A DNA stretch of 64,000 bases from Candidatus Amesbacteria bacterium (GCA_027371535.1 DAHXMV010000004.1:3666-67665); one strand, 5' to 3'; positions 19,388 through 48,583 are shown, counted from the first letter of the stretch. Numbers and translations are program-made. Notes: generated by a model not told the origin, from the letters alone.

Positions 19388-19767
19388 TCAGACCAAACGG
19401 TAAAGACGACGAACAATTCGGACAGGAACTGATTTTAAATTTATACGACTGCGATTTGCAGAAGATTTCCGACGGCGACCATATTAAAAATTACATCGTC
19501 AAGTTGTGCGACGAGGTGATTTTTATGAAGCGGTACGGCGAGGCCCTTATCCCGCATTTCGGACATGACAACCCGGTCACTTCGGGTTATTCGCTGGTGC
19601 AATTAATAGAAACCAGCTGCGTATCGGCACATTTTTCGGAATATAAAAAATCAGTTTATATAAACATATTTTCATGCAAGTGGTTTGATCCCCAAAAAGC
19701 CGAAGAGTTTTCCAAAAAGTGGTTCGGGGCCAATAAAACGGAAACGCATCTGTTGCAAAGATTTTAA
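19384..19767 (+). CDS. Small pyruvoyl-dependent S-adenosylmethionine decarboxylase (SpeH/class 1b AdoMetDC)-like protein
   Basis: Alignable by eye to B. subtilis SpeH over the full length (GQELILNLYDCD vs GRHVISELWGCD; SGYSLVQLIETSCVSAHFSEY vs SGVVIISESHLTIHSFPEH; IFSCKWFDP vs VYTCGDLDP). The processing-site Ser appears replaced by Thr. There is a 4-nt overlap with the upstream ATP-grasp gene. Confidence 0.6.
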   Translation: MIRPNGKDDEQFGQELILNLYDCDLQKISDGDHIKNYIVKLCDEVIFMKRYGEALIPHFGHDNPVTSGYSLVQLIETSCVSAHFSEYKKSVYINIFSCKWFDPQKAEEFSKKWFGANKTETHLLQRF

Positions 19768-20360
19768 ACTTCCGGAAGAAAAAGTCTGGCTGAAGAAGTG
19801 GTGAATTTGGGCAAGTGGGCTGATTCTTTGGCAATCACCAGCATCAGACGATTGTAATATTTACGAGCCAGTCTGAAACCGCGTTTATGATGATTATTTT
19901 TTATCCTCCGGAAATCATAGTCGTACCAAATATCAATAAAATCAGTCCACTTGTAGGATTTTTTACCGCCCCAGGAGGAATCAAATAAAACTATCCGGCT
20001 GTTGCGATTGGAGTAAGATGCCACTGAAGAGTAATGGCCGCTTTCGCCTTCTTTATCATCGGTATCAATTTCCTGGTAATTAACCATAACTGCCCGGGGG
20101 CGGTCGGGAAACGATTTGAGACCGGACTGGAGATGCTTTAAAGTGGACCATTCAATCGCCAAAACCGGATAACCCAGACGGTTGATGGCTGAAATCAGAT
20201 TTTTGACCGAAGTTCCGTTTCGGGGAGTGGTCTTACACAGGCTGATCAGCCGGTCCAAAGGGATCCGCCGGCCAAGAATATCCAGGGCGGTTTTTAAGGC
20301 CGCAGGGCCGCAGGTGTAGCCATCCGGCTGGGGGTGGGTTTTGACTTTGGATCTGCTCAT
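19764..20360 (-). CDS. Papain-fold C39-like (Peptidase_C39_2/BtrH-like) cysteine peptidase or acyltransferase
   Basis: N-terminal PQPDGYTCGPAALKTALDILG is the Cys-containing motif of C39-like domains. A downstream GHYSSV supplies a candidate His. It is convergent with the SpeH-like gene and shares its stop region. Confidence 0.5.
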   Translation of the reverse strand: MSRSKVKTHPQPDGYTCGPAALKTALDILGRRIPLDRLISLCKTTPRNGTSVKNLISAINRLGYPVLAIEWSTLKHLQSGLKSFPDRPRAVMVNYQEIDTDDKEGESGHYSSVASYSNRNSRIVLFDSSWGGKKSYKWTDFIDIWYDYDFRRIKNNHHKRGFRLARKYYNRLMLVIAKESAHLPKFTTSSARLFLPEV

Positions 20361-32484: not shown

Positions 32485-32618
32485 ATCAATTGTATTTTAG
32501 CAGGGTAGGCTACATATCCCAATGATTATAATTTGCAGCTGCAAACCATTGGGATATATCCAATTATACAATTGCCTTCGCAATTGAATGTTAATTGGCT
32601 ATAATATTATTTATATAT

Positions 32619-34370
32619 ATGAATCCTGCCCAGGGAAACTTTAAAGGTGTCGGGGAAGTTGAAGCCAGTAATATTCTGGGGATTTTGGTAAAAGACGGCA
32701 AGCTGACAAGCGAAAATTACGAGAAAGCCAGAATGGCATATGTAAACAGCGGGGCTACGATGACTGACTGGCTGGTTTCACAACAGTTAGTCTCCCTGGA
32801 AGATATTATGAAGGCCAGGGCCAAGTATTACAACGTACCGTTTGTACATCTGTCCGAAGTGGCGATTTCCCCGATGGCTCTGGGATTTATCGACAAAGAT
32901 ATAGCAGAGAGACTGAATGCGCTGCCGTTTGATTACAACCAGTCATTAGGACAGCTGTCTGTAGCTATGGGAAATCCGGTAGATTTATCGGCGCTGGAAT
33001 TTTTGGAGAAGAAAACCGGGGTCAAAATAAAACCCTATGCAGCCATCCCCGATGAGGTCCAGACAAATATTGATATCCGGTATGAGCAGAGCCTGTCGAC
33101 TGAAGTAACGGCGGCGTTGAAAGAAGCTGGCGGGACGGTGCCGACAGAAGTTAAAACGATCAATATCCGCAGGGTGAATGAAGTGATTAAAGAAGCTCCG
33201 ATAGCTAAAATTGTGACCACGATTCTGGAGTTTGCCATGAAGTCCAGGGCTTCGGATGTGCACATTGAGCCATTGGAGGAGCGGACCAGAGTGCGGTACA
33301 GGATAGACGGAATTTTACACGAAAAGCTGGTACTGCCTAAAAAGATTCATGACGCGCTGATATCCAGGATAAAAATATTATCGGATATAAAAATCGACGA
33401 AAAAAGAATTCCCCAGGACGGCAGATTTAATTTTCAGACCGAAGATGACGAGGTGGACCTGCGGGTATCAACTTTGCCGACGGTGCACGGGGAAAAAATT
33501 GTAATGCGGCTTCTGAAGAAAAGCGGTTCAGTGCCCACAATGCAGCAATTGGGACTGCGCGGCAAGGCTTTGGCAAATCTGGAAGAAGCGATATTAAGAC
33601 CGCACGGAATTATTCTGGTAACCGGACCCACCGGTTCGGGGAAAACGACTACTCTGTATTCGGTACTGTCAAAAATAAATACCATCAAAGTGAATATCAT
33701 GACCCTGGAGGATCCGGTGGAGTATCAGATGGCCGGGGTCAACCAGGTACAGATAAATCCCCAGGCGGGGCTGACATTTGCCTCAGGTCTGAGATCATTT
33801 CTGAGGCAGGATCCGAATATCATTATGGTCGGCGAAGTCCGGGATGAAGAAACAGCCGAGCTGGCGATTCAGGCCTCACTTACCGGTCATTTGGTATTTT
33901 CCACCCTGCATACCAATTCGGCTTCCGGCGCCCTACCGCGGCTTTTGGATATGAAAGCCGAACCATACCTTTTAGCATCTTCCATAACGGCGATTGTGGC
34001 CCAAAGGGTAGCCAGAAACATCTGTACGGTTTGCAAAAAGGAATATGTTCCGGCACCTGAAGTAATTACCGATATGAAAAGTGTCCTGGGTAAATTGTGG
34101 GCCATTGACCCGGCTAAAAAACCGGTTTTATACAGAGGCACGGGGTGTGACCAGTGTGCGAATACCGGATTTAAAGGGAGGATAGGAATTTTTGAGGTCT
34201 TGCCCGTAAGCGAAAGAATTGGTAGGCTGATATTAGAACGGGCGTCTGCAGGCGACATCGAAAGAGCCGCAGTCGAAGACGGTATGATCACCATGAAACA
34301 GGACGGTTATTTAAAAGTAGTCGAGGGAATTACCTCGATTGATGAAGTGCTGAGAGTGGCACAGGAGTAG
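32619..34370 (+). CDS. pilB: Type IV pilus assembly ATPase PilB (GspE family)
   Basis: T2SE N-terminal domain, Walker A GPTGSGKTTTLYSVL, Asp and His boxes, and a C-terminal tetracysteine CTVC...CDQC. Confidence 0.9.
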   Translation: MNPAQGNFKGVGEVEASNILGILVKDGKLTSENYEKARMAYVNSGATMTDWLVSQQLVSLEDIMKARAKYYNVPFVHLSEVAISPMALGFIDKDIAERLNALPFDYNQSLGQLSVAMGNPVDLSALEFLEKKTGVKIKPYAAIPDEVQTNIDIRYEQSLSTEVTAALKEAGGTVPTEVKTINIRRVNEVIKEAPIAKIVTTILEFAMKSRASDVHIEPLEERTRVRYRIDGILHEKLVLPKKIHDALISRIKILSDIKIDEKRIPQDGRFNFQTEDDEVDLRVSTLPTVHGEKIVMRLLKKSGSVPTMQQLGLRGKALANLEEAILRPHGIILVTGPTGSGKTTTLYSVLSKINTIKVNIMTLEDPVEYQMAGVNQVQINPQAGLTFASGLRSFLRQDPNIIMVGEVRDEETAELAIQASLTGHLVFSTLHTNSASGALPRLLDMKAEPYLLASSITAIVAQRVARNICTVCKKEYVPAPEVITDMKSVLGKLWAIDPAKKPVLYRGTGCDQCANTGFKGRIGIFEVLPVSERIGRLILERASAGDIERAAVEDGMITMKQDGYLKVVEGITSIDEVLRVAQE

Positions 34371-34373
34371 AAC

Positions 34374-35432
34374 ATGACCATACAACAAATGCTGACATAT
34401 ATTATTGAACACCGGGGTTCGGACCTGCATCTGGTACCCGGTCACCCGCCGCTGATCAGGATTGACGGAATTCTGCTGCCGATTGCCGGCCAAAAAGTGC
34501 TCGGGGCGACGGAAGTGGAACAACTGATTTCCGGGGTGATGTCCGCGGAACAGAAACAGATGTTTATCGTGAACAAAGAACTGGATTTTTCGTTTTCATA
34601 CGGCGAGGATGCCAGGTACAGGGTGAATTCATATTTCCAGAAAGGGGTGATGGCAGCCAGCTTCAGGTTAATTTTATCGAAAATTCCGGAGATTGATGAG
34701 CTGGGTTTGCCGCGGATCTGCCATGAGTTTGCGACCCTGAGACAGGGTTTTGTGCTGGTAACCGGGCCGACCGGACAAGGGAAGTCCACCACTCTGGCCT
34801 CGGTACTGCAGGAGATTAATAACACCCGCCCGGTGCACATCATTACTATCGAAGACCCGATTGAATATATATATGCCCCATCCAAGGCAATAATCTCTCA
34901 AAGGGAGGTGCATAATGACACCCATTCGTGGGAACTGGCTCTGCGGTCTGTCCTGCGCGAAGATCCTGATGTAGTCCTGATAGGGGAAATGCGGGATTAT
35001 GAGACGATCGCGGCGGCTCTGACAATTGCGGAAACGGGCCATCTGGTGTTTGCCACCCTGCATACCAATTCAGCGGCGCAGACAATCGACCGTATCGTGG
35101 ACGTTTTTCCGGAAAATCAGCAGCCGCAGGTACGGATGCAGTTATCCGCCAATCTGGAAGCCGTGCTATCCCAGAGGTTATTGCCCAGAAAAAGCGGCGG
35201 CCGGGTGGTGGGCTATGAAATTATGGTAGGAACAGCCGCAGTCAGGACATCCATCAGGGAAGGCCGGACGCATATGATCGATAACATTATTCAGACTTCG
35301 GCAGAATACGGGATGAAGACCCTGGAATCAACCCTGGGGGAATTGGTCAATTCCGGAGTGATCGCCAGGGAAACGGCCGAGGCATATGCTACCCGTCCCG
35401 AGGATATCAAGCGTTACATAAAAGGAGCTTAA
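34374..35432 (+). CDS. pilT: Twitching-motility retraction ATPase PilT
   Basis: Walker A GPTGQGKSTTLASVL, IITIEDPIEY and GEMRD motifs. 352 aa. Confidence 0.9.
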   Translation: MTIQQMLTYIIEHRGSDLHLVPGHPPLIRIDGILLPIAGQKVLGATEVEQLISGVMSAEQKQMFIVNKELDFSFSYGEDARYRVNSYFQKGVMAASFRLILSKIPEIDELGLPRICHEFATLRQGFVLVTGPTGQGKSTTLASVLQEINNTRPVHIITIEDPIEYIYAPSKAIISQREVHNDTHSWELALRSVLREDPDVVLIGEMRDYETIAAALTIAETGHLVFATLHTNSAAQTIDRIVDVFPENQQPQVRMQLSANLEAVLSQRLLPRKSGGRVVGYEIMVGTAAVRTSIREGRTHMIDNIIQTSAEYGMKTLESTLGELVNSGVIARETAEAYATRPEDIKRYIKGA

Positions 35433-35433
35433 A

Positions 35434-36636
35434 GTGAGGATTAAATATTCGGCCAAGGATAACTCCGGCAGGAATATAAAGGGATTTGTGGAGGCGGCAA
35501 ATGTTCATGCAGCGGCGGGGATATTAAGGGAGCAAAAAATGCTGCCGATTGAAATGCAGGAAGTTAAAAAAGGCCTAAACCTATCCGTTTTTATGGATAA
35601 CCTAAAAGGGGTGTCTTCAAAAGAACTGACTAATTTTACGAGACAGCTGGCGACGATGATGACTGCCGGGTTGCCCCTGACCGACGCGTTAAACTTGCTA
35701 AAAGCCCAGTCACCACCCGTACTATCGGGAATTGTCGGAATGGTGCTGGTGGATGTGCAATCAGGAGTTGCTTTGTCTGCAGCGCTGGGAAAATTCCCGA
35801 AAGTATTTAACCGGATTTACGTTTCGCTGGTAAAAGCGGGTGAATCCGCAGGACTGATGGAAAAGATCCTGAACCGGCTGGCGGATACGGCAGAGAAAAA
35901 CCAGGAGTTTAAAGGCAAAATAATAGGCGCCATGATTTACCCGATAATTATTCTGGTGGGTATGGTGCTGGTGTTTATATTGATGATTGTATTAGTTGTA
36001 CCGCAAATGAAATCAATGTATGCGGATTTAAATTCCGAGCTGCCGTTTGCCACCAGAGCGTTGATAGCAATTTCAGATTTTTCTGTTAATAACGGGCCAT
36101 TAATAATTATCGCCCTGGTCGGAATATTTTTCGGGATCCGTTCATACGTCCAGACGGATAAAGGCAGGGAGAACGCAGCCAGGTTGAAATTTGCCTTTCC
36201 TTTAATAGGTTCATTGTTGCGCCAATCCGCAATGGCCGAATTTTCTCGGGTGATGTCACTATTATTATCCGCCGGAATTTCGATAGTCGAATCACTGAGA
36301 ATTTCTGCCGATTCAGCGGGAAATATAGTCATGGTAAATGACATCAAAAAAATTGCCAATCAGGTGGAAAAAGGTTTCCCGGTCTCAATTTGTTTTTCGG
36401 AGAGCGAGACGTTTCCGCCAATATTCGGGCAAATGGTAGCTGTCGGCGAGGAAACCGGAAAGATGGACGATGTAATGAATAAGCTGTCGTATTATTTTGA
36501 AACGGAATCAGACCAGAGGGTCAAAGGCTTGACAACCGCTATTGAACCGATAATACTAATTGTAATGGCAGTCGGAGTAGGACTTTTGATGTATGCAATT
36601 ATCATGCCGATGTACGGAGTTATGAATAAAGTTTAG
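35434..36636 (+). CDS. pilC: Type IV pilus inner-membrane platform protein PilC (GspF family)
   Basis: Two T2SSF repeats (LATMMTAGLPLTDAL... and LSLLLSAGISIVESL...). 400 aa. Confidence 0.85.
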   Translation: MRIKYSAKDNSGRNIKGFVEAANVHAAAGILREQKMLPIEMQEVKKGLNLSVFMDNLKGVSSKELTNFTRQLATMMTAGLPLTDALNLLKAQSPPVLSGIVGMVLVDVQSGVALSAALGKFPKVFNRIYVSLVKAGESAGLMEKILNRLADTAEKNQEFKGKIIGAMIYPIIILVGMVLVFILMIVLVVPQMKSMYADLNSELPFATRALIAISDFSVNNGPLIIIALVGIFFGIRSYVQTDKGRENAARLKFAFPLIGSLLRQSAMAEFSRVMSLLLSAGISIVESLRISADSAGNIVMVNDIKKIANQVEKGFPVSICFSESETFPPIFGQMVAVGEETGKMDDVMNKLSYYFETESDQRVKGLTTAIEPIILIVMAVGVGLLMYAIIMPMYGVMNKV

Positions 36637-36668
36637 TTTCCCTGGAAGGAGGTGAAATAACCGAAAAT

Positions 36669-37127
36669 ATGTTAAAAAGAGCATTCACATTAATAGAGCT
36701 TTTGGTAGTTATTGGTATACTGGCTGTCCTAATGGCCGGTGTTGTGGCGTTAATCGATCCGGTTGACAAAAACAGAGCGGCCAATGATGCCCAAATGCAA
36801 TCGTTGGTTGCCAACGCAGCCACGGCTGAAGAGTCATATGCGGCTACCCATAACGGTTGTTATGCGAGGACATGGGCGAACCTGAATACTGCAGGAGAAT
36901 TAAAAACCGCTACCCCAAATATTCCTTCTACAGGTGGTTATGTAGCTCCTACGTTTACCATAGGTGCAGTTGCAACCTGTACTAACGCAAACGAAACAGA
37001 TTCGATAAACGTTTGTGCTAATTTGAAGTCAAAGAGGTACACTGGCCCGGCTACCCCGAATTGGCATTATGATTCCATTTCCGGAAAGACATGTGCCACC
37101 GTAAATTGTACAGATGCGTGTCCGTGA
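36669..37127 (+). CDS. pilA: Type IV major pilin (PilA-like), class III signal peptide
   Basis: MLKRAFTLIELLVVIGILAVL. Glu at +5. A C-terminal Cys pair is present. Ala, not Gly, precedes the Phe. Confidence 0.8.
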   Translation: MLKRAFTLIELLVVIGILAVLMAGVVALIDPVDKNRAANDAQMQSLVANAATAEESYAATHNGCYARTWANLNTAGELKTATPNIPSTGGYVAPTFTIGAVATCTNANETDSINVCANLKSKRYTGPATPNWHYDSISGKTCATVNCTDACP

Positions 37128-37154
37128 TGGTTTGAAAGTACTTTCAGACACAAC

Positions 37155-37187
37155 AATCCCGCCCCAAACGGCGGGATTGTTTTTTTG
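37155..37187 (+). terminator. Rho-independent terminator after pilA
   Basis: AATCCCGCC-CCAAAC-GGCGGGATT hairpin followed by GTTTTTTT. Confidence 0.75.
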
Positions 37188-37211
37188 GTAGTATATTAAA
37201 AGAATTGATTT

Positions 37212-37952
37212 ATGAACGGGCTTATTTATGCAATTGTTTTTTGTTACGGAATAATCATGGGGAGTGCGGCCAATGCGCTGATTGACCGTTTGCCCAAAGG
37301 AAAATCCTGGTTTAAGGGCAGGTCGGAATGTGATAAATGCCATCACCAACTTAAATTTGGGGATCTGATTCCGGTGTTTTCCTACCTCTATTTGAAAGGG
37401 AAATGCGGGTATTGCCACTCACCTATTCCGGTAAGAAACCTGATAGTCGAGATAATAACGGGATTGGCATTCATTGTTATTCTTGGTCATTCATGGTCAT
37501 ACAGTAGTTTATTGTTAGCAGGGATTGCTTGGGTGACGGTGATAATTGCGTTCATGGATTGGGAGACGAAGCTGGTCAGCGAGGCGATGGTGGTGATATG
37601 GGGTGTGCTGGCACTTTTGGGTAATTGGGGAAATTTGGGCAATTTGGGAAATTGGGGCGGATTGTTAATCGGGGTGGGGGTGATTGGCGGAATATGGCTG
37701 GTGACAAGGGGACGGGCCATGGGCGAGGGAGATATAGAAATTGCCGCAGTCATGGGCTGGTGGCTGGGATGGGCAAATACCCCCGTGGCTTTGTGGCTGG
37801 CATTTGTACTGGGATCAGTGGTCGGAGTGTGGAAACTGGCGAAAAAGAAAAGTCATTTAAAAGACCAAATAGCATTCGGGCCGTTTTTGGTATTGGGCAG
37901 CTGGATAGCCTATTGGTGGGGGGAAAAGATCTGGGCTTTCATAGTAAAATAG
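37212..37952 (+). CDS. pilD: Prepilin peptidase PilD (A24 family), with an internal 9-nt tandem-repeat-encoded GNWGNLGNLGNWG loop
   Basis: N-terminal Zn-binding CDKCHH...CGYCH tetracysteine and two catalytic Asp regions (IAFMDWETK, GEGDIEIAAV). Confidence 0.85.
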   Translation: MNGLIYAIVFCYGIIMGSAANALIDRLPKGKSWFKGRSECDKCHHQLKFGDLIPVFSYLYLKGKCGYCHSPIPVRNLIVEIITGLAFIVILGHSWSYSSLLLAGIAWVTVIIAFMDWETKLVSEAMVVIWGVLALLGNWGNLGNLGNWGGLLIGVGVIGGIWLVTRGRAMGEGDIEIAAVMGWWLGWANTPVALWLAFVLGSVVGVWKLAKKKSHLKDQIAFGPFLVLGSWIAYWWGEKIWAFIVK

Positions 37953-37956
37953 AGGG

Positions 37957-38445
37957 GTGGAAAAGTTTTCCGTGTTGGCGTGGAGTAGAAAAGAAATATC
38001 GTTTGTGACGGCGATTATTACCCTGGTATTCGGATTATCATGGTATCAGATAATAATCGGAGAGATGAAGACCAGGGATTCACAGAGGATGCAGGATGTG
38101 GAGGCTATCAGCCGGGCGATCAGGACTTATTGGGATGATTATAAGGTCTATCCCGAGGAGGCTACAGGAGAGGGAAAAATGGTCCAATGCGGCGAAAAGG
38201 GCGGTCAGGTATGTGAATGGGGTAAAAGCACCATCAGGGATAAATATAATGTAGTGTATATGAATCTGGTGCCCGGCGATCCCCTGACGAGCAAAGGTTA
38301 CCATTACGTTTACATTCCGGATGCCGAAAGACAGCATTTCAGGATTTACATTGCCCTGGAATACGATGGCGATGCGAGGGTAAAACCTGATTTGACAATC
38401 CAGTGCGGAAACCGTGTACAATGTAATTGGTATGTACAGGAATGA
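37957..38445 (+). CDS. GspG-like pseudopilin-fold protein with a non-canonical N-terminus (GTG start)
   Basis: EAISRAIRTYWDDYKVYPE matches the GspG signature (I..A...Y..d.g.YP). There is a hydrophobic N-terminal helix but no G-F-T-L-I-E cleavage motif. Confidence 0.4.
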   Translation: MEKFSVLAWSRKEISFVTAIITLVFGLSWYQIIIGEMKTRDSQRMQDVEAISRAIRTYWDDYKVYPEEATGEGKMVQCGEKGGQVCEWGKSTIRDKYNVVYMNLVPGDPLTSKGYHYVYIPDAERQHFRIYIALEYDGDARVKPDLTIQCGNRVQCNWYVQE

Positions 38446-38836
38446 ACCTCAGGGATTTACTTTAATAGAATTAGTAATAACCATGGGTTTAATAGCAATT
38501 TTGTCGGCGGGGACGTTGTCTGTTTTGGGTCAGGGACCGCAAAAATATGCCAGAGATTCAAGACGAAAGGCTGACCTGCAGTCAATTGCTTCCGCTCTGG
38601 AATTATACAGGAACGACCATAGCGGTTATCCAATTGCCGGAAACTATCCCTCGGGAATTCAGGGGACTTATATGAATACCATTCCGAAAGATCCCAAAAA
38701 AAGTACATTGGACTATGCTTATACCCCCGGAAATTGCGGTCCGACATATTGTTCGACTTTCAGTATTTGTACTAATAGTTCACAACCCCCTGAATCTTAC
38801 GGAGAGCCGCTCCAGTACTGTGTTTATAACCCATGA
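38432..38836 (+). CDS. Type IV pilin/pseudopilin (GspG-like)
   Basis: Class III signal QGFTLIELVITMGLIAIL plus LELYRNDHSGYP. The start is ambiguous (38414 or 38432). Confidence 0.65.
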   Translation: MYRNEPQGFTLIELVITMGLIAILSAGTLSVLGQGPQKYARDSRRKADLQSIASALELYRNDHSGYPIAGNYPSGIQGTYMNTIPKDPKKSTLDYAYTPGNCGPTYCSTFSICTNSSQPPESYGEPLQYCVYNP

Positions 38837-39402
38837 AGAAAGCCTATACGTTATTGGAAATAGTCCTGGCAATAGGTTTAACGGTAGTCATGTCCGGATC
38901 TGCAATTGCAGCGTATGTTAAATACAACAGATCACAAATGGTCAATTCAGCATATCAGGAAATTATGAATGTTTTCAGGGAAGCCAGAACTAATGCCATG
39001 ACCGGTAAAATGGATTGTAACCAGTGCGATTGTGACGGCAGCGGAGCTCATCCGGCCTTTAACGGGTGGATGGTCTATATAGATTGTTCAAAAAAACACA
39101 CGAATGGCAATAATAATGTCGGGTATGAAATAGAAGGTGAATGCCAGGGACCGCCGGGGAGTCCGCCGATGTTTGGATACCGGTCAAAATATTTTTCCAA
39201 AATAGATATCCGGATTAATGATTTCGGCCCCGTTAATCTAGCCCAATGCAACGCCAACAACAATAACAATGTCCGGTACTTATCGGGTGGAACGGGGGTG
39301 TCTTTTGCTACCGGAACATCGCTGGTGATTAAGCTTAGATCCCAGTTTGACAATTCAATAATCAAAACAATTAATGTGGATTCATCAGGAGTAGTGCACT
39401 GA
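38833..39402 (+). CDS. Minor pilin/pseudopilin with a Cys-rich insert
   Basis: MKKAYTLLEIVLAIGLTVVM prepilin-like leader with A-Y instead of G-F. Also CNQCDCDGSG. Confidence 0.55.
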   Translation: MKKAYTLLEIVLAIGLTVVMSGSAIAAYVKYNRSQMVNSAYQEIMNVFREARTNAMTGKMDCNQCDCDGSGAHPAFNGWMVYIDCSKKHTNGNNNVGYEIEGECQGPPGSPPMFGYRSKYFSKIDIRINDFGPVNLAQCNANNNNNVRYLSGGTGVSFATGTSLVIKLRSQFDNSIIKTINVDSSGVVH

Positions 39403-39407
39403 TTAAT

Positions 39408-39878
39408 ATGGGGAAATCCGGCTTTAAAAAAGGTCAAATACTGTTAGAAACTTTAATTGCGTTTTCAATTGCCGTTGTGGTGCTAATAGCGGTGATGAAT
39501 CTGGCTACCAGATCTGTGAATAATTCCGGTGTATCAGACAGAACCAGTGAAGCCACGTCATATGCCGATCAGGGTATAAACTGGGTCAAAAGCCAGGTGG
39601 TGCTATCATGGTCGGACTTTAATGATTCATTTACATCGGGGAGCCACTATTGCCTGCAGACATTATCCAATTGGACACCATCGCCGACTCCGGCTGCGGG
39701 TTCCTGCGGTACGGGGCAAGAAATATCAGGAACACAATTTTTCAGGGAGGCAGTATTGTTTAAATTAACTGACTCAAACTTAAGGAATTATATTGAAGCT
39801 ACGGTAACAGTTACCTGGACTGAAGGCATGAACACAAAAACCGTATCCAGATACGGAGTGTATTACAACAATACATAG
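39408..39878 (+). CDS. Minor pilin/pseudopilin
   Basis: MGKSGFKKGQILLETLIAFSIAVVVL: Glu at +5 after G-Q. Confidence 0.5.
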   Translation: MGKSGFKKGQILLETLIAFSIAVVVLIAVMNLATRSVNNSGVSDRTSEATSYADQGINWVKSQVVLSWSDFNDSFTSGSHYCLQTLSNWTPSPTPAAGSCGTGQEISGTQFFREAVLFKLTDSNLRNYIEATVTVTWTEGMNTKTVSRYGVYYNNT

Positions 39879-39881
39879 GAG

Positions 39882-40388
39882 ATGATTAAAAAAGGTTTTT
39901 CACTGATCGAAATACTATTGGGGATATCGTTATTTATTATTATGTCCGCAACTGCCGGAGCAGTACTTGTGAATTCTCTTAGAAGCGCACGCAAAGCTTC
40001 GGCGACAACTCTGGCCAAAAATGAAGGGCAGTATGCCCTGAAAACTATACAGCAGGCAATTTTATTTGCGGCAGATGCGACGTGCGTTTCGGGGACAACG
40101 CTGAATTATCATGTGGAGAATGATCCTACAAACACTTTACACACTTATTCCCTTAACGGGGCGGCTATCCGGGCGGACGGAAATCCGATGACTTCGACCA
40201 GTGTGTCTATCGCCCAGGGATCATGCACCAATGTGTTCACCTGTTCGACAAACGGCAGTGGTTTTGTGACCACAGTGGAAATTTGCTTTGTAATTAACAA
40301 TGCCAACGGAATTGATGTTTCAGATACAGCTGGTATTTCGGGATTAAAGTTTGACACACTGGCGACGCTATTAAATACGAAAAATTAG
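39882..40388 (+). CDS. Minor pilin/pseudopilin
   Basis: MIKKGFSLIEILLGISLFII canonical prepilin leader. Confidence 0.6.
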   Translation: MIKKGFSLIEILLGISLFIIMSATAGAVLVNSLRSARKASATTLAKNEGQYALKTIQQAILFAADATCVSGTTLNYHVENDPTNTLHTYSLNGAAIRADGNPMTSTSVSIAQGSCTNVFTCSTNGSGFVTTVEICFVINNANGIDVSDTAGISGLKFDTLATLLNTKN

Positions 40389-40435
40389 GGTTGGAAATTG
40401 CATAAAGATGTGCGATAGTTATAATAAATAAAGAT

Positions 40436-41269
40436 ATGAAATCGGGGCAGGTGCTGATAATTACTTTGTTGGTTTTAAGCGTGGTGGCTACAGTCGCCAT
40501 GTCGATTGCTTCCAGAAGCGTGACGGAGGTGCAGGTATCGACGACACAGGATGAATCTTCCAGGGCGCTGGATGCGGCAGAAGTGGGACTGGAAAAATTT
40601 TTAAGTGTGACGGGAGTACCTTCAACCGGAATTTCTTCAACCAGTGTGAACAGTATTAATGCCAGCTATACAATTCCGGCACCAACGGGTTTGGGAAATT
40701 CATCTTCGTTTGATGTCCCCTACTCTCTGGATGAAGGCGATGTGGCGACGGTGGATTTACCGGCAAATCCCGGGACTTCAGTCAAAGTCTGTTGGAATGG
40801 CGGTACCGGAGCAACTTCGTCTAAAGTGGAAGTGGCATTTTTTTATCAGGATAGAGCGCATAAAGTATATGTAAAAAGAATGGGTTATGACCCTGTAGCA
40901 AGCGGCAATAATTTTATTACTTCAGGGGTAGTGACTTCATCAGCAACCTGCGGATCTACCAGTTATAGTTTTTCAAAAACAATACAACTGAATAACGATA
41001 ACCCGCCGGGGAGCGGGAATATGAATTTAGGTTTGCCAACAAATTCGACCATATTTATGCGGATCAGGATGTTGGGTAACAGTTCCACTGGTCCCCAAAA
41101 TGTGGGGGTGGCACTGAGCGGGGTAAATTTACCGCAGCAGGGAGGAATAGTTGAGGCGGTGGGAGTTGCCGGTTCGACATCACAAAGAGTCAGGGCGACA
41201 GTCAGTTACTATGATCTGCCGACAATGTTTGACAGTGCCATTTTTTCCGGAGGACAGATAGTTAAATGA
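40436..41269 (+). CDS. PilX-like minor pilin (PilX_N domain)
   Basis: MKSGQVLIITLLVLSVVATVAMSIASRS...ALDAAEVGLE resembles the PilX N-terminal domain. Confidence 0.5.
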   Translation: MKSGQVLIITLLVLSVVATVAMSIASRSVTEVQVSTTQDESSRALDAAEVGLEKFLSVTGVPSTGISSTSVNSINASYTIPAPTGLGNSSSFDVPYSLDEGDVATVDLPANPGTSVKVCWNGGTGATSSKVEVAFFYQDRAHKVYVKRMGYDPVASGNNFITSGVVTSSATCGSTSYSFSKTIQLNNDNPPGSGNMNLGLPTNSTIFMRIRMLGNSSTGPQNVGVALSGVNLPQQGGIVEAVGVAGSTSQRVRATVSYYDLPTMFDSAIFSGGQIVK

Positions 41270-41286
41270 ACTTTTCGATATAGATT

Positions 41287-42309
41287 ATGAGCAACCTGCC
41301 CAGAATCGGAATAGATATAGGGACGACATCCATCAAAATGGTGGAGCTTTTGCCGGCGGGGAGAGATAAATGGAGACTGTTGACTGCGGCATCGATGCCG
41401 TCGGTGGCCGGCGGGATATTGGCTAACCAAGCTAATCTGGCAGCATTTTCCCAAGTGATTATAAAAATGCGTAAAGAAGCGGGGATGAAAAGCCAAAGGG
41501 TGATTGCCGCACTGCCTGAGGAACAGGTATCTTCACATGTGGTAGAACTGCCACTCATGAGCGAGGACGAGGTAAAACAGGCCCTGCAATGGCAGGTAGA
41601 GCAGTATATTCCTATCCCGGCTGACCGGGCAGTTTGGAGTTCGCAGACGATCAGGAAAGACCCGGCTACCGGCGGAATGGAGGTATTACTGGTGGCCGCG
41701 GCAAAAAATCTGGTTAATGCCTATATTAACGTTTTGGAACAGGCGGGACTGGAAGTGGTGGCAATGGAGACGGAATTGATGGCCACAGCCAGAGCGGAGG
41801 TGCCGGCTGACTATCCCCTATCGCTTGTCGTAGACATCGGCTCAAAAAGCACGGACATGGGCGTGGTCCAAAAGGGCCAATTGGTTTTTGCCCGAACGGT
41901 GGCTACGGCCGGGGATGCTTTTACCCGGGCAATCCAGGCTGCTCTCGGTTTGGATGCAGCCCAGGCGGAACAATATAAAAACACTTACGGGTTTTCTGGG
42001 GATAAACTCAATGGGAAATTGGCTGAAGCCATGCGGCCGGTTTTGAATGTAATCGCCTCGGAAATTAAAAAAACGGTCGATTTTTATACTTCCAAACACT
42101 TAGGCGAAGGCCTGAACCTGGTGACAATTTCCGGAGGGGTTTCGGTTTTGCCCGATATGGTAGGAGTGTTGACGGGGATGCTCGGTTTGGAGGTATCTAT
42201 CGGCAACCCGTTTATGAAATTGGTAATGGATAAAAATCAGACTCAGGCTCTGGCCGGCAACGGGCCGATTTACGGTGTGGCGGTGGGCCTGGCAATGAGA
42301 GATATATGA
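41287..42309 (+). CDS. pilM: Type IV pilus assembly protein PilM (actin-like ATPase fold)
   Basis: IGIDIGTTSIKMVEL and two actin-fold phosphate motifs (VVDIGSKSTD). Confidence 0.8.
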   Translation: MSNLPRIGIDIGTTSIKMVELLPAGRDKWRLLTAASMPSVAGGILANQANLAAFSQVIIKMRKEAGMKSQRVIAALPEEQVSSHVVELPLMSEDEVKQALQWQVEQYIPIPADRAVWSSQTIRKDPATGGMEVLLVAAAKNLVNAYINVLEQAGLEVVAMETELMATARAEVPADYPLSLVVDIGSKSTDMGVVQKGQLVFARTVATAGDAFTRAIQAALGLDAAQAEQYKNTYGFSGDKLNGKLAEAMRPVLNVIASEIKKTVDFYTSKHLGEGLNLVTISGGVSVLPDMVGVLTGMLGLEVSIGNPFMKLVMDKNQTQALAGNGPIYGVAVGLAMRDI

Positions 42310-42824
42310 TAAATTTTGTCATCAAAGAGGACAAGAGCGGACAGATAATAGATCAGGTTAAACGGGTAGTCACGGTAATTACTTCCGTGGTACTGATAGT
42401 TTATATCGTGGTAGCAGCGGGAGTAATCGGCTGGATGGTATGGGAGAATTCCCGGGCGAAAAAAACCACTGTGGATACCAGTGATGTAATAAAACAGATT
42501 CAGGATTTATCGGCAAAAGAGATAGTAATAAGGAATTTAGCCGACCGGGCCAATCTGGTGGAAAGTTTTTTGGGCGAACGCGGTGATTCATCCCAGTCGG
42601 CATATTTGCTGGGTTCACCGGGAAACAAAATTGTGAGTTGGAATTATGTTTTGGGAGGAGCGGAAGTAGTGAGTGTAGCCGCCAGCCAACCGGCAGAGCT
42701 GAAAGTTTATATGGATTACCTGGGCGAAAAATACGTGCAGGTCAGAACTGAAAAAGTGGAGTGGACACCTGAGAATGGATGGAAAGGGATATTTGACGTA
42801 ACGAGAAAGAAAGGGGCCACATGA
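42306..42824 (+). CDS. PilN-like bitopic membrane protein
   Basis: Single TM after a short cytoplasmic N-terminus, in the pilM-pilN-pilO position, with a 4-nt overlap with pilM. Confidence 0.5.
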   Translation: MINFVIKEDKSGQIIDQVKRVVTVITSVVLIVYIVVAAGVIGWMVWENSRAKKTTVDTSDVIKQIQDLSAKEIVIRNLADRANLVESFLGERGDSSQSAYLLGSPGNKIVSWNYVLGGAEVVSVAASQPAELKVYMDYLGEKYVQVRTEKVEWTPENGWKGIFDVTRKKGAT

Positions 42825-43513
42825 ATACGGGTTTAAACAGGTTCAAAATATCGGACTGGGTGTGGATTTTTTATCCGCTGATAGTAGTGACATTTATTAT
42901 AGTCAGCGCCGGTTATTTGTTGGGTTCCGGGTCGACCAGTATTCAGGTATTGCTGAGTAAACAACAAAAAACGGATGACCAGCAAAACCAATTATCCAAA
43001 CTGAAACTAAAACTGGAAACTTTAAAAAGTGCGGATACTGATCAGGAGGGCCAAAAACTAACCCAGCTTTTAGTAGCCATGCCGCCGGCCAAAAGGGTAT
43101 GGTATTTATTAGAAGCTGTAAATAAATCAGCCAGCGATGCGGGAGTGCTGATCAATCAATTTAACGGTAATGTTGGCGATGTCAAAGAAGCTACTGCTTC
43201 AGCAACGGTATCGGGTCAGATAACTCCTACGGATCAGACACAAAAAACCATGAGTCTCAATGTGGAATTTGCCCAGATGGATTTTCCGAGTATGACTAAA
43301 ATAATTTCAGAGCTGGAAGGAGATTTACCACTGGTCAAAGTAAAAAAGGTTGATTTTACCTTATCCAAAACGACGATTGATTTGGAAGGCGGATGGGGAC
43401 AGTTGATAAAGCCATCATTGGATGCCACCCTGCCGTTACCAAATTATATCGTGATATCCCAACGGGCTTTACAGCATATTCAGGGGATGTCTGACCTGAC
43501 CACTCTGAATTAA
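42821..43513 (+). CDS. PilO-like bitopic membrane protein
   Basis: Single TM plus a coiled-coil (LSKLKLKLETLKSAD), with a 4-nt overlap with pilN. Confidence 0.5.
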   Translation: MNTGLNRFKISDWVWIFYPLIVVTFIIVSAGYLLGSGSTSIQVLLSKQQKTDDQQNQLSKLKLKLETLKSADTDQEGQKLTQLLVAMPPAKRVWYLLEAVNKSASDAGVLINQFNGNVGDVKEATASATVSGQITPTDQTQKTMSLNVEFAQMDFPSMTKIISELEGDLPLVKVKKVDFTLSKTTIDLEGGWGQLIKPSLDATLPLPNYIVISQRALQHIQGMSDLTTLN

Positions 43514-43514
43514 A

Positions 43515-43757
43515 TTAAGGGCTTTCGGGGGCCGGCGGAGTCAACAAAGTGAGATTCGGAGGAGGTAATTGATGAATGGCGCAGTAGGTTTTTAAAAGGG
43601 TGCGGACAGCGTTAATAACATTTCCCTGCTTCCCAATTACCCGGCCGACGTCGGCATCGGCAACCTTGAGACTGATATTTCCTGATTCGACGGTGATTTT
43701 TAAGGCGTCGGGTTCGGTCAAAAGCGGAGAAACGATAAATTTTAAAAAATCCTGCAT
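43515..43757 (-). CDS. KH-domain RNA-binding protein (YlqC/UPF0109 family)
   Basis: VGRVIGKQGNVINAVRTL is the KH GxxG loop. Its position after rpsP is conserved. Confidence 0.6.
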   Translation of the reverse strand: MQDFLKFIVSPLLTEPDALKITVESGNISLKVADADVGRVIGKQGNVINAVRTLLKTYCAIHQLPPPNLTLLTPPAPESP

Positions 43758-43761
43758 GGTA

Positions 43762-43983
43762 TCAGATTTTTAACAGGCGTTTAACTTTGGGGGTAGGCTG
43801 GGCGCCTTTTTTGATCCATTCACTGACCGCGTCCTGATCAAATGTCAGTTTGTTAGCCAACGGATGGTAATCACCCAGAATTACCAAATTGTCACTGGTG
43901 AGCTTGGAGTTTTCTTCCATTACCACTATCCGGTAATGCGGTTCATGTTTTTTACCTAAGGGAGAAAGTTTGATTTTCAACAT
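43762..43983 (-). CDS. rpsP: 30S ribosomal protein S16
   Basis: MLKIKLSPLGKKHEPHYRIVV matches the S16 N-terminus (R..G.K..P.YRIVV). Confidence 0.9.
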   Translation of the reverse strand: MLKIKLSPLGKKHEPHYRIVVMEENSKLTSDNLVILGDYHPLANKLTFDQDAVSEWIKKGAQPTPKVKRLLKI

Positions 43984-44011: not shown

Positions 44012-44674
44012 TTAGGGAAAAAGAGCGGCTAAGGCAACTTTGGCAGCCTGAGTTTCGGCTTTTTGTTTGCTGGCTCCGGTGCCTGTCCCCCTGGACTGGC
44101 CGTTGATATCCACAGATATAGTGAATTGTTTGGCATGGTCGGGTCCGGAAGTTTCGGTGATGCGGTAGGTAGGCGTGCCCAAACCTTTGGCCTGGGAAAG
44201 CTCCTGCAACAAACTTTTGGGGTCTTTGGCTTTTATTTCTTCCGAGAGGAGAATACTATCCGGGAAGATCAGGTTCAGAAATCGGTAGCAGGCGGATATT
44301 CCGGAATCGATAAAAATGGCCCCCAGGACGGCTTCAAAGGTGTTAGCCAGCAAGCCCGAATTAGTCCGGCCGCCGGATTCTTCCTCTCCCCGGCTAAGTC
44401 TGAGCAGTTTGTCAAAACCCAGCTCGGCGGATTTTTGGGCAAGGGTAGCCGTTTGGACCAGATATGATCTGCGGCTGGTTAATTCACCTTCGGGGGAAAC
44501 AGGGAGTTTTCTAAACAGTCTGTCGGAGATGATCAATGACAGAACAGAATCCCCTAAAAATTCCAGTCTTTCGTTGTGGACAGTCCCGGGGTGTTCATTA
44601 CAAAATGAACGATGGGTCAGAGCTTCGGTTAAAAGCTCCTGAGATTTTAAAAAGTCAGACAGGTTCAGGTTCAT
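44012..44674 (-). CDS. rnc: Ribonuclease III
   Basis: Catalytic ERLEFLGDSVLSLIISDRLF signature plus a C-terminal dsRBD. Confidence 0.9.
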   Translation of the reverse strand: MNLNLSDFLKSQELLTEALTHRSFCNEHPGTVHNERLEFLGDSVLSLIISDRLFRKLPVSPEGELTSRRSYLVQTATLAQKSAELGFDKLLRLSRGEEESGGRTNSGLLANTFEAVLGAIFIDSGISACYRFLNLIFPDSILLSEEIKAKDPKSLLQELSQAKGLGTPTYRITETSGPDHAKQFTISVDINGQSRGTGTGASKQKAETQAAKVALAALFP

Positions 44675-44909
44675 GACTATCCGGCTCCAGACTGTTTAAA
44701 AGGTCGCCGACGGTTTTGATGTCGTTTATTTTATCCTCGGGTAATATAAAGTCCAGAGCGTCCTGCATTCTGGTAATCAGGTCGGCCAGCTGCTCCGGGG
44801 TGAGATTGAAATCCGGCAGGAATTCACTATCCGGCAGGATATCTTCCGGCCGGAGATGGTATTCATTGGCCAGAAACTGGATAACGGCCTTTTTGAGATT
44901 AGGATTCAT
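44655..44909 (-). CDS. Acyl-carrier-protein-like four-helix protein lacking the phosphopantetheinylation serine (DSL replaced by FNL)
   Basis: Alignable to ACP helices I to IV (SF...LPDFNLTPEQLADLI vs SF...LGADSLDTVELV; ILPEDKINDIKTVGD vs EIPDEEAEKITTVQ). It occupies the conserved acpP-rnc position. Confidence 0.45.
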   Translation of the reverse strand: MNPNLKKAVIQFLANEYHLRPEDILPDSEFLPDFNLTPEQLADLITRMQDALDFILPEDKINDIKTVGDLLNSLEPDSHEPEPV

Positions 44910-45267
44910 TTTGATCTATTTTTTGATCTTTAACTAATTTTCCCAAAGCCCCGTTAATAAAGCCAGGACTGTTGGCGCTGCCAAATTCCTTGGCCAATTC
45001 AATGGCTTCGTCAATAATAACCTTGTAGGGGGCGTTTTTGTCAATAGCAAGTTCGTAAACGGCCAAACGGAGAATGGCTAAATCGATGGGATTGAGCTTG
45101 TCCAGCGGCCATTCCGGGGCCGCATCGGAAATTAAGGGATCAATTTCAGACAATTTTTTCCAAATTGGCTTTACCATATTATCGGGTTTTTGCTGAAATT
45201 GGGCTGAAAACAGGTGCTGAACCAGGGTAACCCGGTTTTTGTGACGCGGATCGTAAGCAGTTTTCAT
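44899..45267 (-). CDS. nusB: Transcription antitermination factor NusB
   Basis: All-helical, about 120 aa; KNRVTLVQHLFSAQF...LAILRLAVYEL fits the NusB family. Confidence 0.8.
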   Translation of the reverse strand: MKTAYDPRHKNRVTLVQHLFSAQFQQKPDNMVKPIWKKLSEIDPLISDAAPEWPLDKLNPIDLAILRLAVYELAIDKNAPYKVIIDEAIELAKEFGSANSPGFINGALGKLVKDQKIDQNES

Positions 45268-45297
45268 AATAAAACCAGTATAACAAGTTAAAAAAAT

Positions 45298-45756
45298 ATG
45301 TTAACAGGCAAAGAAAGTATTATACGTCGATGTATCGATTCATGGTACACTGATATTATGACTCCACTTTCGAGGTGGAAAATGGAAAAAGATGACGAGG
45401 AAAAAATCTGGCTGGTGTTAGTAAATGAGCTGGTAAAAATCCAAGGTAACCAGGATATGGAAGCGCTTTTAAAAGTGATTTTGACAGATACAGAACAGCT
45501 GATAATAGGAAAAAGACTACTAGCATTGATAATGGTGAATCAGGAATTTACCGATGTGCAGATAGCCAAAAGACTTCACCTTACGCGGGAAACTGTTAAA
45601 AGATTAAAGCTGAGATTTAGACATGAGGATGATTTGCGGAAACCAGTTAAAGCTATCGTGAGGCAAATGGAACAATCGGATATTTTAAAATCTTTACTTA
45701 AGAAATTACTTAGTTATGCAATTCCCGCTTTGGGAGGGAGGGCGCCAAGGAATTGA
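45298..45756 (+). CDS. TrpR-like YerC/YecD-family DNA-binding protein
   Basis: LTDTEQLIIGKRLLALIMVNQEFTDVQIAKRLHLTRETVKR is the TrpR_YerC helix-turn-helix region. The true start may be the internal Met at 45358. Confidence 0.55.
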   Translation: MLTGKESIIRRCIDSWYTDIMTPLSRWKMEKDDEEKIWLVLVNELVKIQGNQDMEALLKVILTDTEQLIIGKRLLALIMVNQEFTDVQIAKRLHLTRETVKRLKLRFRHEDDLRKPVKAIVRQMEQSDILKSLLKKLLSYAIPALGGRAPRN

Positions 45757-46419: not shown

Positions 46420-46593
46420 CTAGCGGGTGACTTTGAGACCTTTGTAAAAACCGCAGTAGTGGCAGGCAGAATGGGAGCGGGTGGGCTTGTGGCAATTCGG
46501 ACATTCTACCAGAGTCGGCAGTTTCAGACGAATGCTGGCCCGGCGTTTGCCCTGGCGCATGGTGCTATTTCGGCGTTTTTGTAAGGGAGTCAT
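46420..46593 (-). CDS. rpmF: 50S ribosomal protein L32
   Basis: Manual translation: MTPLQKRRNSTMRQGKRRASIRLKLPTLVECPNCHKPTRSHSACHYCGFYKG, with the L32 CxxC...CxxC zinc ribbon. Below the ORF-track cutoff. Confidence 0.8.
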   Translation of the reverse strand: MTPLQKRRNSTMRQGKRRASIRLKLPTLVECPNCHKPTRSHSACHYCGFYKGLKVTR

Positions 46594-46594
46594 A

Positions 46595-48583
46595 TCAGTT
46601 TGGTTCGATGATGTGTATTTTATCTTCTTTGATTAACTGACGCAACAAGGGATATTCCTGAAGTTTGGGCAGGGTTTTTTGAGCAACGGATCTGGCTTTT
46701 TCAATTAGGGAGAAGTCATCATAGGTGGCGACTTTAAAATCGGGGAAACCATGCTGGGCGGTGCCGTAAATTTCACCCGGACCACGGTATTTGAGATCGG
46801 CTTCCGCCAATTCCATGCCCGAATCCAGGTGTTCCAGGTTTTTTAAACGGGTTATGCCTGTTTCATCACTGGTGAAAAGCAGGCAGTAGGACTGGATCTG
46901 ACTGCGACCCACCCGACCACGCAATTGGTGCAACTGGGCCAGCCCGAAACGTTCAGCCCCCTCAATGATCATCAGAGCGGCTCCCGGAATGTCCAGCCCG
47001 ACTTCCACCACCGGAGTGGCAACCAGAATATCCAGTTTTTTGGACCGGAATTTATCCAGAACATCATTTTTTTCCGCAGCTTTTAATTTCCCGTGCAGAA
47101 GACCCAATTTAAGGCGGGGGAAAATTTCCTGCAGGTGGATAAATTCGGCTTTGGCGGCTTTGACGGAAGTCAGGGTGTCGCTATCCTCGATAAAAGGGCA
47201 GACCCAAAAAGCTTGAGAGGCGTATTTAACCATTTGATCATTTAACCATTTGTATGAGGATTCGCGTTTGTATTCCGGAACCACCCAGGTTTTGACGGGC
47301 AACCTGCCGGCGGGTTTGGCATCCAATACCGACAGGTCCAGATCTCCGTACATGGCGAGGGCAACCGTTCGGGGTATGGGGGTGGCGGTCATAGTCAGAG
47401 TGTGGGGGGTTTCCCCGATTTTGGCGGCCCGGGAGCGCTGCATGACACCGAAACGATGCTGTTCGTCGATGACAACCAAACCCACATCGGAAAAATTCAG
47501 ATTTTGGGACAGGAGGGCATGGGTACCGACAACAATTTTTAATTTTGTATTTTCAATTTTTAATTTTGAAGCGCCGGTGATCAGGCCGATGTCTACACCG
47601 TATGGCTTAAACATGGCGGAAAAGGTCTGAAAATGCTGCTCGGCTAAAATTTGGGTGGGAGCAAGAATTACCGTCCTGAAGCCGTTTAAGTGAGCAACGT
47701 ATGCCGCCACGGCGGCTACTACGGTTTTACCGCTGCCGACATCGCCTTCCAACAGACGGTTCATAGGCCGGCTGAGACTCAGATCCGACAATATTTCTTT
47801 CAATGACCGGTTTTGGGAGGCAGTAAGGGAAAAAGGCAAGTTGTTCATAAATTTCAGAATTTTTTCCTGATCGACAATAAAAGCGTGAGTCAGTCTGGTC
47901 CGCTCCCAGATATCTTTTCTGATAAGTGATGCCAATTGAAGCAGGAACAATTCGTCAAAAGCCAGACGGTTTCTGGCGACCCGGGCGGTTTCCAGATTTT
48001 GGGGGAAATGAACATCTTTCAGGGCTGCCAGCCAACCGGGCATATCAATATCCGGGGGAAGAATTTCGGCCGTGTCCATAACTGATAATAAGTGATGGAT
48101 TTTGGTGCGGAGCCATTTGGATGAGATTCCGGCGGTTTCCGGATAAATCGGGACAATCCTGCCCATATGCAATAATATGCCGGAAGGAATTTCAAAATCC
48201 GGAGAAACCAGGGCGGGTAGATTTTTGTAATAATCCACCTTGCCCCAAAGGGCAATTCCCTGGTTCTTGGCCAGGGATTTTACCAGGTAAGGCTGGTTAA
48301 ACCAGATAACATTGATGCTGCCCGTGCCGTCGGTGACCTGGCCAACCTGGATAAACTTTCCCCGGTGGGTAAATTCGTTTTTCAAGGAAGTGATTTTTCC
48401 GATGACGGTAGATGTTTCTCCGGGCTGAAGCCGGTCAACAGCTGAGGTAAATGTCCGGTCTTCATAACGAAAGGGTAAGTGGTACAGAAAGTCAAAAACG
48501 GTTTTAATACCCAGTTTTTCCAGTTTTTTACCCAATGCCCCTCCGATTCCCGGGAGAGTGGTTACCGGAGAAGAAAGATCCAT
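46595..48583 (-). CDS. recG: ATP-dependent DNA helicase RecG
   Basis: Wedge/OB N-terminal domain, Walker A GDVGSGKT, DEQHRFGV, TATPIPRT and QLRGRVGR motifs. Confidence 0.9.
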   Translation of the reverse strand: MDLSSPVTTLPGIGGALGKKLEKLGIKTVFDFLYHLPFRYEDRTFTSAVDRLQPGETSTVIGKITSLKNEFTHRGKFIQVGQVTDGTGSINVIWFNQPYLVKSLAKNQGIALWGKVDYYKNLPALVSPDFEIPSGILLHMGRIVPIYPETAGISSKWLRTKIHHLLSVMDTAEILPPDIDMPGWLAALKDVHFPQNLETARVARNRLAFDELFLLQLASLIRKDIWERTRLTHAFIVDQEKILKFMNNLPFSLTASQNRSLKEILSDLSLSRPMNRLLEGDVGSGKTVVAAVAAYVAHLNGFRTVILAPTQILAEQHFQTFSAMFKPYGVDIGLITGASKLKIENTKLKIVVGTHALLSQNLNFSDVGLVVIDEQHRFGVMQRSRAAKIGETPHTLTMTATPIPRTVALAMYGDLDLSVLDAKPAGRLPVKTWVVPEYKRESSYKWLNDQMVKYASQAFWVCPFIEDSDTLTSVKAAKAEFIHLQEIFPRLKLGLLHGKLKAAEKNDVLDKFRSKKLDILVATPVVEVGLDIPGAALMIIEGAERFGLAQLHQLRGRVGRSQIQSYCLLFTSDETGITRLKNLEHLDSGMELAEADLKYRGPGEIYGTAQHGFPDFKVATYDDFSLIEKARSVAQKTLPKLQEYPLLRQLIKEDKIHIIEPN

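Follow-up and report, generated by a model that had tools for sequence, protein, structure and literature searches.

The 64-kb window, by which we mean the whole stretch of Candidatus Amesbacteria DNA analysed here (64,000 nucleotides), contains between nusB and rnc a small gene whose product is related to acyl carrier protein (ACP) and carries no Ser at the phosphopantetheine (Ppant) attachment site. We propose that this ACP-like protein is probably an apo-only acidic protein-binding module, which descended from the ACP gene of fatty acid synthesis (FAS) and has NusB and/or RNase III as its probable partner.

The ACP-like gene and its neighbourhood

The ACP-like gene belongs to a run of genes on the minus strand, for which the following features were recorded (window coordinates):

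43515..43757 (-): gene for a khpA-type KH-domain RNA-binding protein, ends the same-strand run (PF13083, 2.5e-15; order kept in related loci)
43762..43983 (-): rpsP, ribosomal protein bS16, 3' of rnc (PF00886, 4.9e-14; order kept in related loci)
44012..44674 (-): rnc, RNase III, 220 aa (TIGR02191, 231.8 bits)
44655..44909 (-): ACP-like gene, 84 aa, ATG start, pI 4.1, predicted four-helix ACP fold without the phosphopantetheine-attachment Ser (ORF, PF00550, PDB matches, AF2/Foldseek)
Residues 77-84 of the ACP-like protein: disordered acidic/proline tail (AF2 model)
44796..44801 (-): Thr37-Pro38 codons, opposite Asp-Ser of the ACP DSL motif (alignments and AF2 helix II start)
44899..45267 (-): nusB, 122 aa (PF01029, 4.5e-25; TIGR01951, 100.5 bits, above cut-off)
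45277..45304 (-): TTAACA-16-TATACT, a promoter-like site with TG extension whose end lies 10 nt ahead of the nusB ATG (consensus scan only)
46420..46593 (-): rpmF, ribosomal protein bL32 (ORF, matched in related loci; PF01783 on the L020 orthologue)
46595..48583 (-): recG, helicase gene that anchors the conserved block on its upstream side (ORF)

The ORF reported at 44655-44909 by the initial annotation is real, encoding 84 aa from an ATG start on the minus strand, and the overlaps claimed for it are exact: the last 11 nt of nusB overlap its start codon region and the first 20 nt of rnc overlap its 3' end. No Shine-Dalgarno (SD)-like sequence was found upstream of the ACP-like ATG, GGAG is located 10 nt upstream of the rnc ATG, and a consensus scan detected no terminator-like site between nusB and khpA on the minus strand. 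RecG was matched in every related locus whose available DNA extends upstream of nusB. In most related loci rpmF lies directly 5' of nusB; in the window two opposite-strand genes intervene.

Two observations concern nusB itself. Its ATG (45267, -) is only 30 bp away from a divergent HTH gene (45298-45756, +) with weak Sigma70_r4/Trp-repressor-like matches, which is also found in L008; as the promoter-like site ends 10 nt before this ATG, the nusB mRNA may be nearly leaderless. The window NusB is also short, and only its residues 29-112 match the Pfam and TIGRFAM profiles (profile positions about 46-132), which suggests that, compared with canonical NusB, it has a compressed N-terminal third. 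In the P0259 and P0206 loci (L026 and L027) the called NusB proteins reach 140-143 aa, yet they have the same ACP-like neighbour.

Homology to acyl carrier proteins

Taken together, the profile matches, PDB matches and structural model indicate that the gene product is a genuine ACP-fold protein and an ACP homologue, as first suggested. The single window sequence is a marginal case for Pfam, passing the PF00550 (PP-binding) gathering score of 20.8 narrowly (22.5 bits, E=1.4e-4, residues 8-72, profile 2-65/67), and precomputed PF00550 matches exist on many relatives. AcpP-type models of NCBIfam gave 22-26 bits, far under their cut-offs of about 70 (TIGR00517, 24.3 versus 70.45 bits for the equivalog cut-off; NF002148, 26 versus 71 bits). 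The best PDB sequence matches found with phmmer are ACPs (2kwl, 1.3e-6; 2ehs, 2.9e-5), in gap-free alignments of about 70 residues. An AF2 model built on 25 relatives (pLDDT 83.8, pTM 0.66) predicts helices at residues 3-16, 30-34, 38-52, 58-63 and 67-74, i.e., the ACP helix pattern, and all matches listed by Foldseek against PDB are ACPs or ACP-containing complexes (TM 0.62-0.71, rmsd about 2 A). The calculated pI, 4.14, is close to that of E. coli AcpP (4.05).

The cofactor site

In ungapped phmmer, MAFFT (with E. coli and B. subtilis ACP) and profile alignments, the ACP sequence DLGADSL stands opposite DFNLTPE of the window protein, so that D-S-L corresponds to T37-P38-E39 (window 44793-44801) and the Ser equivalent is Pro38. 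The attachment Ser of ACPs is located at the start of helix II, and helix II of the AF2 model begins at residue 38, matching this position; Thr37 is placed where a helix-II N-cap would be. The initial annotation, according to which DSL had become FNL, was thus right about the absence of Ser and wrong about the residues involved, its register being off by three: the phmmer, MAFFT and profile alignments rule out Asn35 as the Ser equivalent, and the profile alignment has no Ser at the modification site, with Pro38 in that column. A shifted attachment site at Thr37/Ser37 was also rejected, since the ungapped register pairs ACP L37, D38, V40, E41 and L42 with conserved hydrophobic and acidic columns and since column 37 varies between S, N, G, T, D and R.

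On the strength of these alignments, the ACP-like protein is not phosphopantetheinylatable at the canonical site, and the claim that it cannot be converted to holo-ACP is supported as far as that site is concerned. Loss of the attachment Ser would make it an obligate apo-protein unable to shuttle acyl groups.

A conserved nusB-ACP-like-rnc locus

The nusB-ACP-like gene pair was found in all 26 loci examined that encode a Ser-less relative, rnc being the next gene wherever the contig extends that far. Seventeen of these loci form a close set (14 GTDB species representatives, mostly labelled Amesbacteria, and 3 metagenome contigs), in which nusB-ACP-like-rnc invariably lies, as far as the contigs extend, inside the block recG-rpmF-nusB-ACP-like-rnc-rpsP-khpA, followed by a divergent pilM cluster. 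Distant Ser-less members (about 25-50% identity) are each located between nusB and rnc where the contig extends to rnc. The nusB-ACP-like-rnc core was recorded for:

P0066 (L018)
P0040 (L019)
P0056, Beckwithbacteria (L020/21)
P0172 (L022/23)
P0259, 88% identical to a protein annotated WWE3 (L026)
P0206 (L027)
P0199, Gottesmanbacteria (L028)

Canonical ACPs recovered by the same profile have other neighbours. P0064, which has an intact DSLD motif, sits in rpmF-fabH-fabD-acp-fabF. P0198, the best-scoring ACP with the DS pair, was considered as a Ser-containing intermediate in the nusB-rnc context and rejected, as it adjoins an IscU-like gene instead. In that locus (L029 443-1249, also L030) the canonical Ser-containing ACP gene lies directly 3' of the NifU_N/IscU-like gene, an arrangement which recalls the link between ACP and Fe-S biogenesis in eukaryotes.

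In the window and in every related locus extending to rnc, the ACP-like gene is directly upstream of rnc and co-oriented with it. In B. subtilis, we take recG-fapR-plsX-fabD-fabG to precede acpA and ffh-rpsP-khpA(ylqC)-rimM-trmD to come soon after ftsY, presumably with no nusB-ACP-like junction. B. subtilis has an acpA-rnc-smc-ftsY operon (PMC4838370), and the acpP-rnc position originally assigned to the gene agrees with this order. The CPR block therefore resembles a collapsed B. subtilis region from which fab genes were deleted and into which nusB moved, which supports positional orthology with acpA; we consider this the best reading of the ACP-like gene.

Five of the loci (L005, L006, L011, L013 and L017) come from GTDB representative MAGs titled "uncultured Gammaproteobacteria bacterium" despite a locus of the Microgenomates type. 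The title looks like a mislabel in view of the gene content and of the 43-67% identity to Amesbacteria proteins.

Serine loss as a family trait

Relatives were gathered by a word-indexed search (26 relatives), a HMMER scan of 1.84 billion representatives and two profile searches, one of which (A5) alone returned 390 clusters at E<=1e-8. Among the 102 proteins that the A5 search added, 3 have Ser at the ACP-Ser column. Named members are from Candidatus Amesbacteria, Beckwithbacteria, Gottesmanbacteria and Woesebacteria, "Microgenomates" and candidate division WWE3. Column statistics were computed in one profile for 206 stand-alone relatives without Ser at column 38 and for 101 stand-alone canonical ACPs; the latter were chosen for [D/E]-S at columns 37-38, and these two columns are therefore fixed by selection of the set.

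Columns 37-38 (ACP Asp-Ser): Ser-less set (n=206), entropy 2.8 bits each, Ser column P 37%, E 18%, A 13%; canonical set (n=101), [D/E]-S by selection
Column 39: Ser-less set (n=206), entropy 3.4 bits; canonical set (n=101), L 79%
Column 40: Ser-less set (n=206), E/D 73%; canonical set (n=101), D 84%
Column 43 (helix-II acidic): Ser-less set (n=206), D/E 95%; canonical set (n=101), E/D 96%

The Ser column of the Ser-less set is variable (P, E, A, K, Q and others) and changes from S to N between the close relatives P0199 and P0200, while column 37 shows S/N/G/T/D/R, the set typical of a helix N-cap. The core columns I9, L13, I24, F30, D33, L34, L41, L48, L52, I64, T66, V67, D69, L70 and L74 are equally conserved in Ser-less proteins and real ACPs, and protein length is constant (about 75-90 aa). 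Variable columns 37-39 next to a preserved core and preserved acidic residues at helix-II positions 40 and 43 suggest that the cofactor site was freed from selection while the fold and the charge of the "recognition helix" are still selected. From these comparisons we conclude that Ser loss is a family trait, as opposed to a one-off mutation or lesion.

Lipid genes in the window and in the lineage

The search for FAS and phosphopantetheinyl transferase (PPTase) genes covered the 64 kb and about 25 flanking loci. No fab, acpS, plsX or other acyl-ACP enzyme gene was detected by Pfam scan in 56 of the 71 candidate ORFs of at least 60 aa in the window, where the statement that fab genes are missing nearby consequently holds, and no PPTase or acyl-ACP-using enzyme is present in the Pfam-annotated flanks of related loci. 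Represented among the 56 proteins scanned are translation, replication and a type IV pilus cluster, besides H+-PPase, PBP1 and the like. CPR bacteria have been described as unable to make membrane lipids and devoid of fatty acid biosynthesis (PMC7242380; PMC12455944).

Family members are labelled "acyl carrier protein" or "hypothetical protein" in the source records. Such labels could wrongly imply residual fatty acid or phospholipid metabolism in CPR genomes.

Selection and translational coupling

Rates of substitution were estimated by the Nei-Gojobori method; 112 of the 120 pairs were saturated at synonymous sites, hence only the closest orthologue pairs were used, with the following dN/dS values for the least saturated pairs:

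ACP-like protein: 0.07-0.15
NusB: 0.12-0.25
RNase III: 0.06-0.13

These values indicate that the ACP-like protein is kept under purifying selection. Together with the same neighbours being found across several Microgenomates lineages and WWE3, they bear out the earlier view that the gene is retained for a functional protein.

In nearly all loci, each of the two junctions of the ACP-like gene is either a stop/start overlap of 4-47 nt or a gap not exceeding 10 nt. The overlaps, present in most loci, are consistent with translational coupling, in line with the co-translation that the initial annotation had deduced from the window. Together with the promoter-like site, the GGAG before rnc and the failure to detect an SD-like sequence before the ACP-like gene or a terminator, they fit stoichiometric co-translation with NusB and RNase III.

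Proposed role and alternatives

A protein that is Ser-less yet conserved across a large clade of ultra-small, lipid-dependent bacteria should have some non-carrier job now. According to the explanation that we consider probable, its ancestor would be an ACP gene of fatty acid synthesis, located, as elsewhere among bacteria, upstream of rnc. The fab genes would have gone from the locus in a large CPR/Patescibacteria clade made up of Microgenomates lineages and WWE3, where the attachment Ser would also have been lost and the D-S-L positions fully relaxed. Produced from a tight nusB-ACP-like-rnc(-rpsP-khpA) operon whose stop and start codons overlap, the small acidic subunit would dock on its partner via the helix II/III face, a conserved acidic surface that ACPs use for every partner. 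This partner, probably NusB and/or RNase III, would assign the protein to rRNA antitermination, rRNA processing or ribosome biogenesis. NusB and RNase III both act on the pre-rRNA leader. We infer both the protein binding as such and the choice of partner.

The only partner-specific evidence found comes from two loci (L001 484-969 and L002 3764-4258) where the frame of NusB stays open into that of the ACP-like protein (...GALGHIIKSH-MNPNLKS...). This in-frame fusion, which stems from one population (two assemblies from two samples of one site) and retains an internal ATG that could still yield a separate protein, is a Rosetta-stone-type hint, read from sequence, that NusB is the partner. Both scaffolds have N-gaps inside nusB, and the fusion fragment P0025 covers only the last 43 NusB residues.

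The main rival explanation, which we judge somewhat unlikely, also assumes an apo-only ACP and attributes to it a function unrelated to its neighbours, with an Fe-S, SMC-type or stringent-response partner or with non-covalently bound scavenged lipids, the position being a leftover of acpA-rnc. The acp-rnc linkage is indeed older than Ser loss, as the acpA-rnc-smc-ftsY operon of B. subtilis illustrates, and such ancestral adjacency is by itself no sign of interaction. E. coli AcpP binds MukB, SpoT and IscS, the mitochondrial ACP (mACP) of Plasmodium is a Ppant-less ACP kept for Fe-S biogenesis, and a canonical ACP gene adjoins the IscU-like gene in L029, all of which would agree with such a function. 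What this explanation leaves aside is the nusB-ACP-like junction, which we take to be absent from B. subtilis and which, overlapping codons included, is conserved all the way from Amesbacteria to the WWE3-related group, having even turned into an in-frame fusion in one lineage.

Column statistics and dN/dS values make two further explanations unlikely. The protein might still be a carrier if an unusual transferase from another part of the genome modified a non-canonical residue (e.g., Ser/Thr37 or Ser28): position 37 is Ser or Thr in about 40% of the family, position 38 is Ser in about 12% of the relatives without the canonical [D/E]-S pair, and position 28 is frequently S or T. We regard this as very improbable because no hydroxyl residue is conserved, position 37 being of the helix N-cap type (S/N/G/T/D/R) and position 38 mostly Pro, with a change from S to N between P0199 and P0200; moreover, position 28 is opposite an unmodified A/T/S column of canonical ACPs, and neither a PPTase nor an acyl-ACP-using enzyme was found in the scanned window proteins or related loci. 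It is equally hard to credit that the product is irrelevant, the gene being a translated spacer which couples nusB to rnc translation or else a decaying pseudogene. The overlaps with both neighbours, the failure to find an SD-like sequence for the gene and a conserved N-terminus (MNPNL), on which the overlapping stop region of nusB places some constraint, would be expected of a spacer. However, dN/dS is as low as that of RNase III (0.07-0.15 for the ACP-like protein), lineages at <30% identity share the fold-core and helix-II acidic residues, the length stays constant at about 75-90 aa, and the fold is predicted with confidence.

More speculatively, the obligate apo-ACP that we favour might be a dedicated subunit of rRNA antitermination or processing in Microgenomates and WWE3, bound to NusB and possibly bridging to RNase III, although we think such a specific role rather unlikely. 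If this were true, the widespread acp-rnc linkage would be the trace of an old function in which ACP, independently of its cofactor, couples membrane-lipid status to ribosome biogenesis, and lipid-scavenging Microgenomates and WWE3 would have kept only that second role.

Comparison with known acyl carrier proteins

The ACP-like protein resembles ACPs of type II FAS (E. coli AcpP, B. subtilis AcpA; PF00550/TIGR00517) in its four-helix fold (TM about 0.7), size, acidity (pI 4.1 versus 4.05), conserved core including the D33-L34 and I-x-T-V-G-D motifs, helix-II acidic residues and position upstream of rnc like acpA of B. subtilis. It differs from them by a Ser-less DSL site (T-P-E in the window protein, the column being unconstrained in the family), by a TIGR00517 score of 24 bits against a 70-bit cut-off, by nusB as flanking gene instead of fabG/fabF, and by the absence of fab, plsX and acpS nearby (among 56 window proteins and the annotated flanks of related loci).

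The closest analogue is the divergent mACP of Plasmodium falciparum, which has no Ppant, binds Isd11-Nfs1 in Fe-S biogenesis and is essential (Falekun et al. 2021, PMC8547962). Both are ACP homologues, the ACP-like protein being predicted to lack Ppant as mACP does, and mACP was retained for protein binding after local loss of FAS II. Unlike this eukaryotic, organellar protein, the ACP-like protein belongs to a CPR bacterium and to a context of nusB, rnc and ribosomal protein genes, and its role is predicted; no LYR-type or Nfs1 gene was seen near the ACP-like gene of the window.

For the role that the nusB-rnc-rpsP context suggests, mitochondrial ACP (mt-ACP) provides a precedent: as part of the MALSU1-L0R8F8-mt-ACP module in assembly intermediates of the mitoribosome large subunit (PMC8208988), it is a structural subunit in ribosome biogenesis instead of an acyl shuttle. 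No MALSU1/RsfS or LYR homologue was found among the scanned window proteins, another difference from that module. The mitochondrial ACP of the module is the canonical holo/acyl form and is bound through the LYR protein. In the moonlighting of bacterial holo-AcpP (MukB, SpoT, IscS), it is likewise the helix-II acidic surface that binds and regulates non-FAS proteins; however, AcpP is modifiable and also serves FAS, whereas the ACP-like protein can retain the non-carrier capacity only.

Our literature searches returned nothing on a Ser-less ACP in CPR bacteria or on a link between ACP, NusB and RNase III. A clade-wide non-carrier ACP would be a bacterial counterpart to the Plasmodium mACP and a natural system in which the non-carrier function of ACP stands isolated. 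Its role is directly testable since both overlapping neighbours encode likely partners, and it may help to explain the acp-rnc linkage in bacteria that make fatty acids.

Other gene clusters of the window

A type IV pilus cluster occupies positions 32595-43513. It encodes two ATPases of the T2SSE type, a T2SSF protein resembling PilC, a prepilin peptidase and PilM, and further includes several N-methyl pilin-like ORFs and two genes without annotation; its PilM end abuts khpA in nearly all related loci. The gene for a membrane H+-translocating pyrophosphatase (25859-27883; PF03030, 833 bits) is flanked by gyrA and by a 571-aa gene for which Pfam gave no match. In region 17317-20360, two ATP-grasp genes of the D-Ala-D-Ala-ligase type lie side by side, accompanied by a gene similar to AdoMet decarboxylase and by a convergent gene with a C39 peptidase domain; the cluster may serve peptide modification or export. 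A tyrosine recombinase gene (16104-17084) lies just upstream of it.
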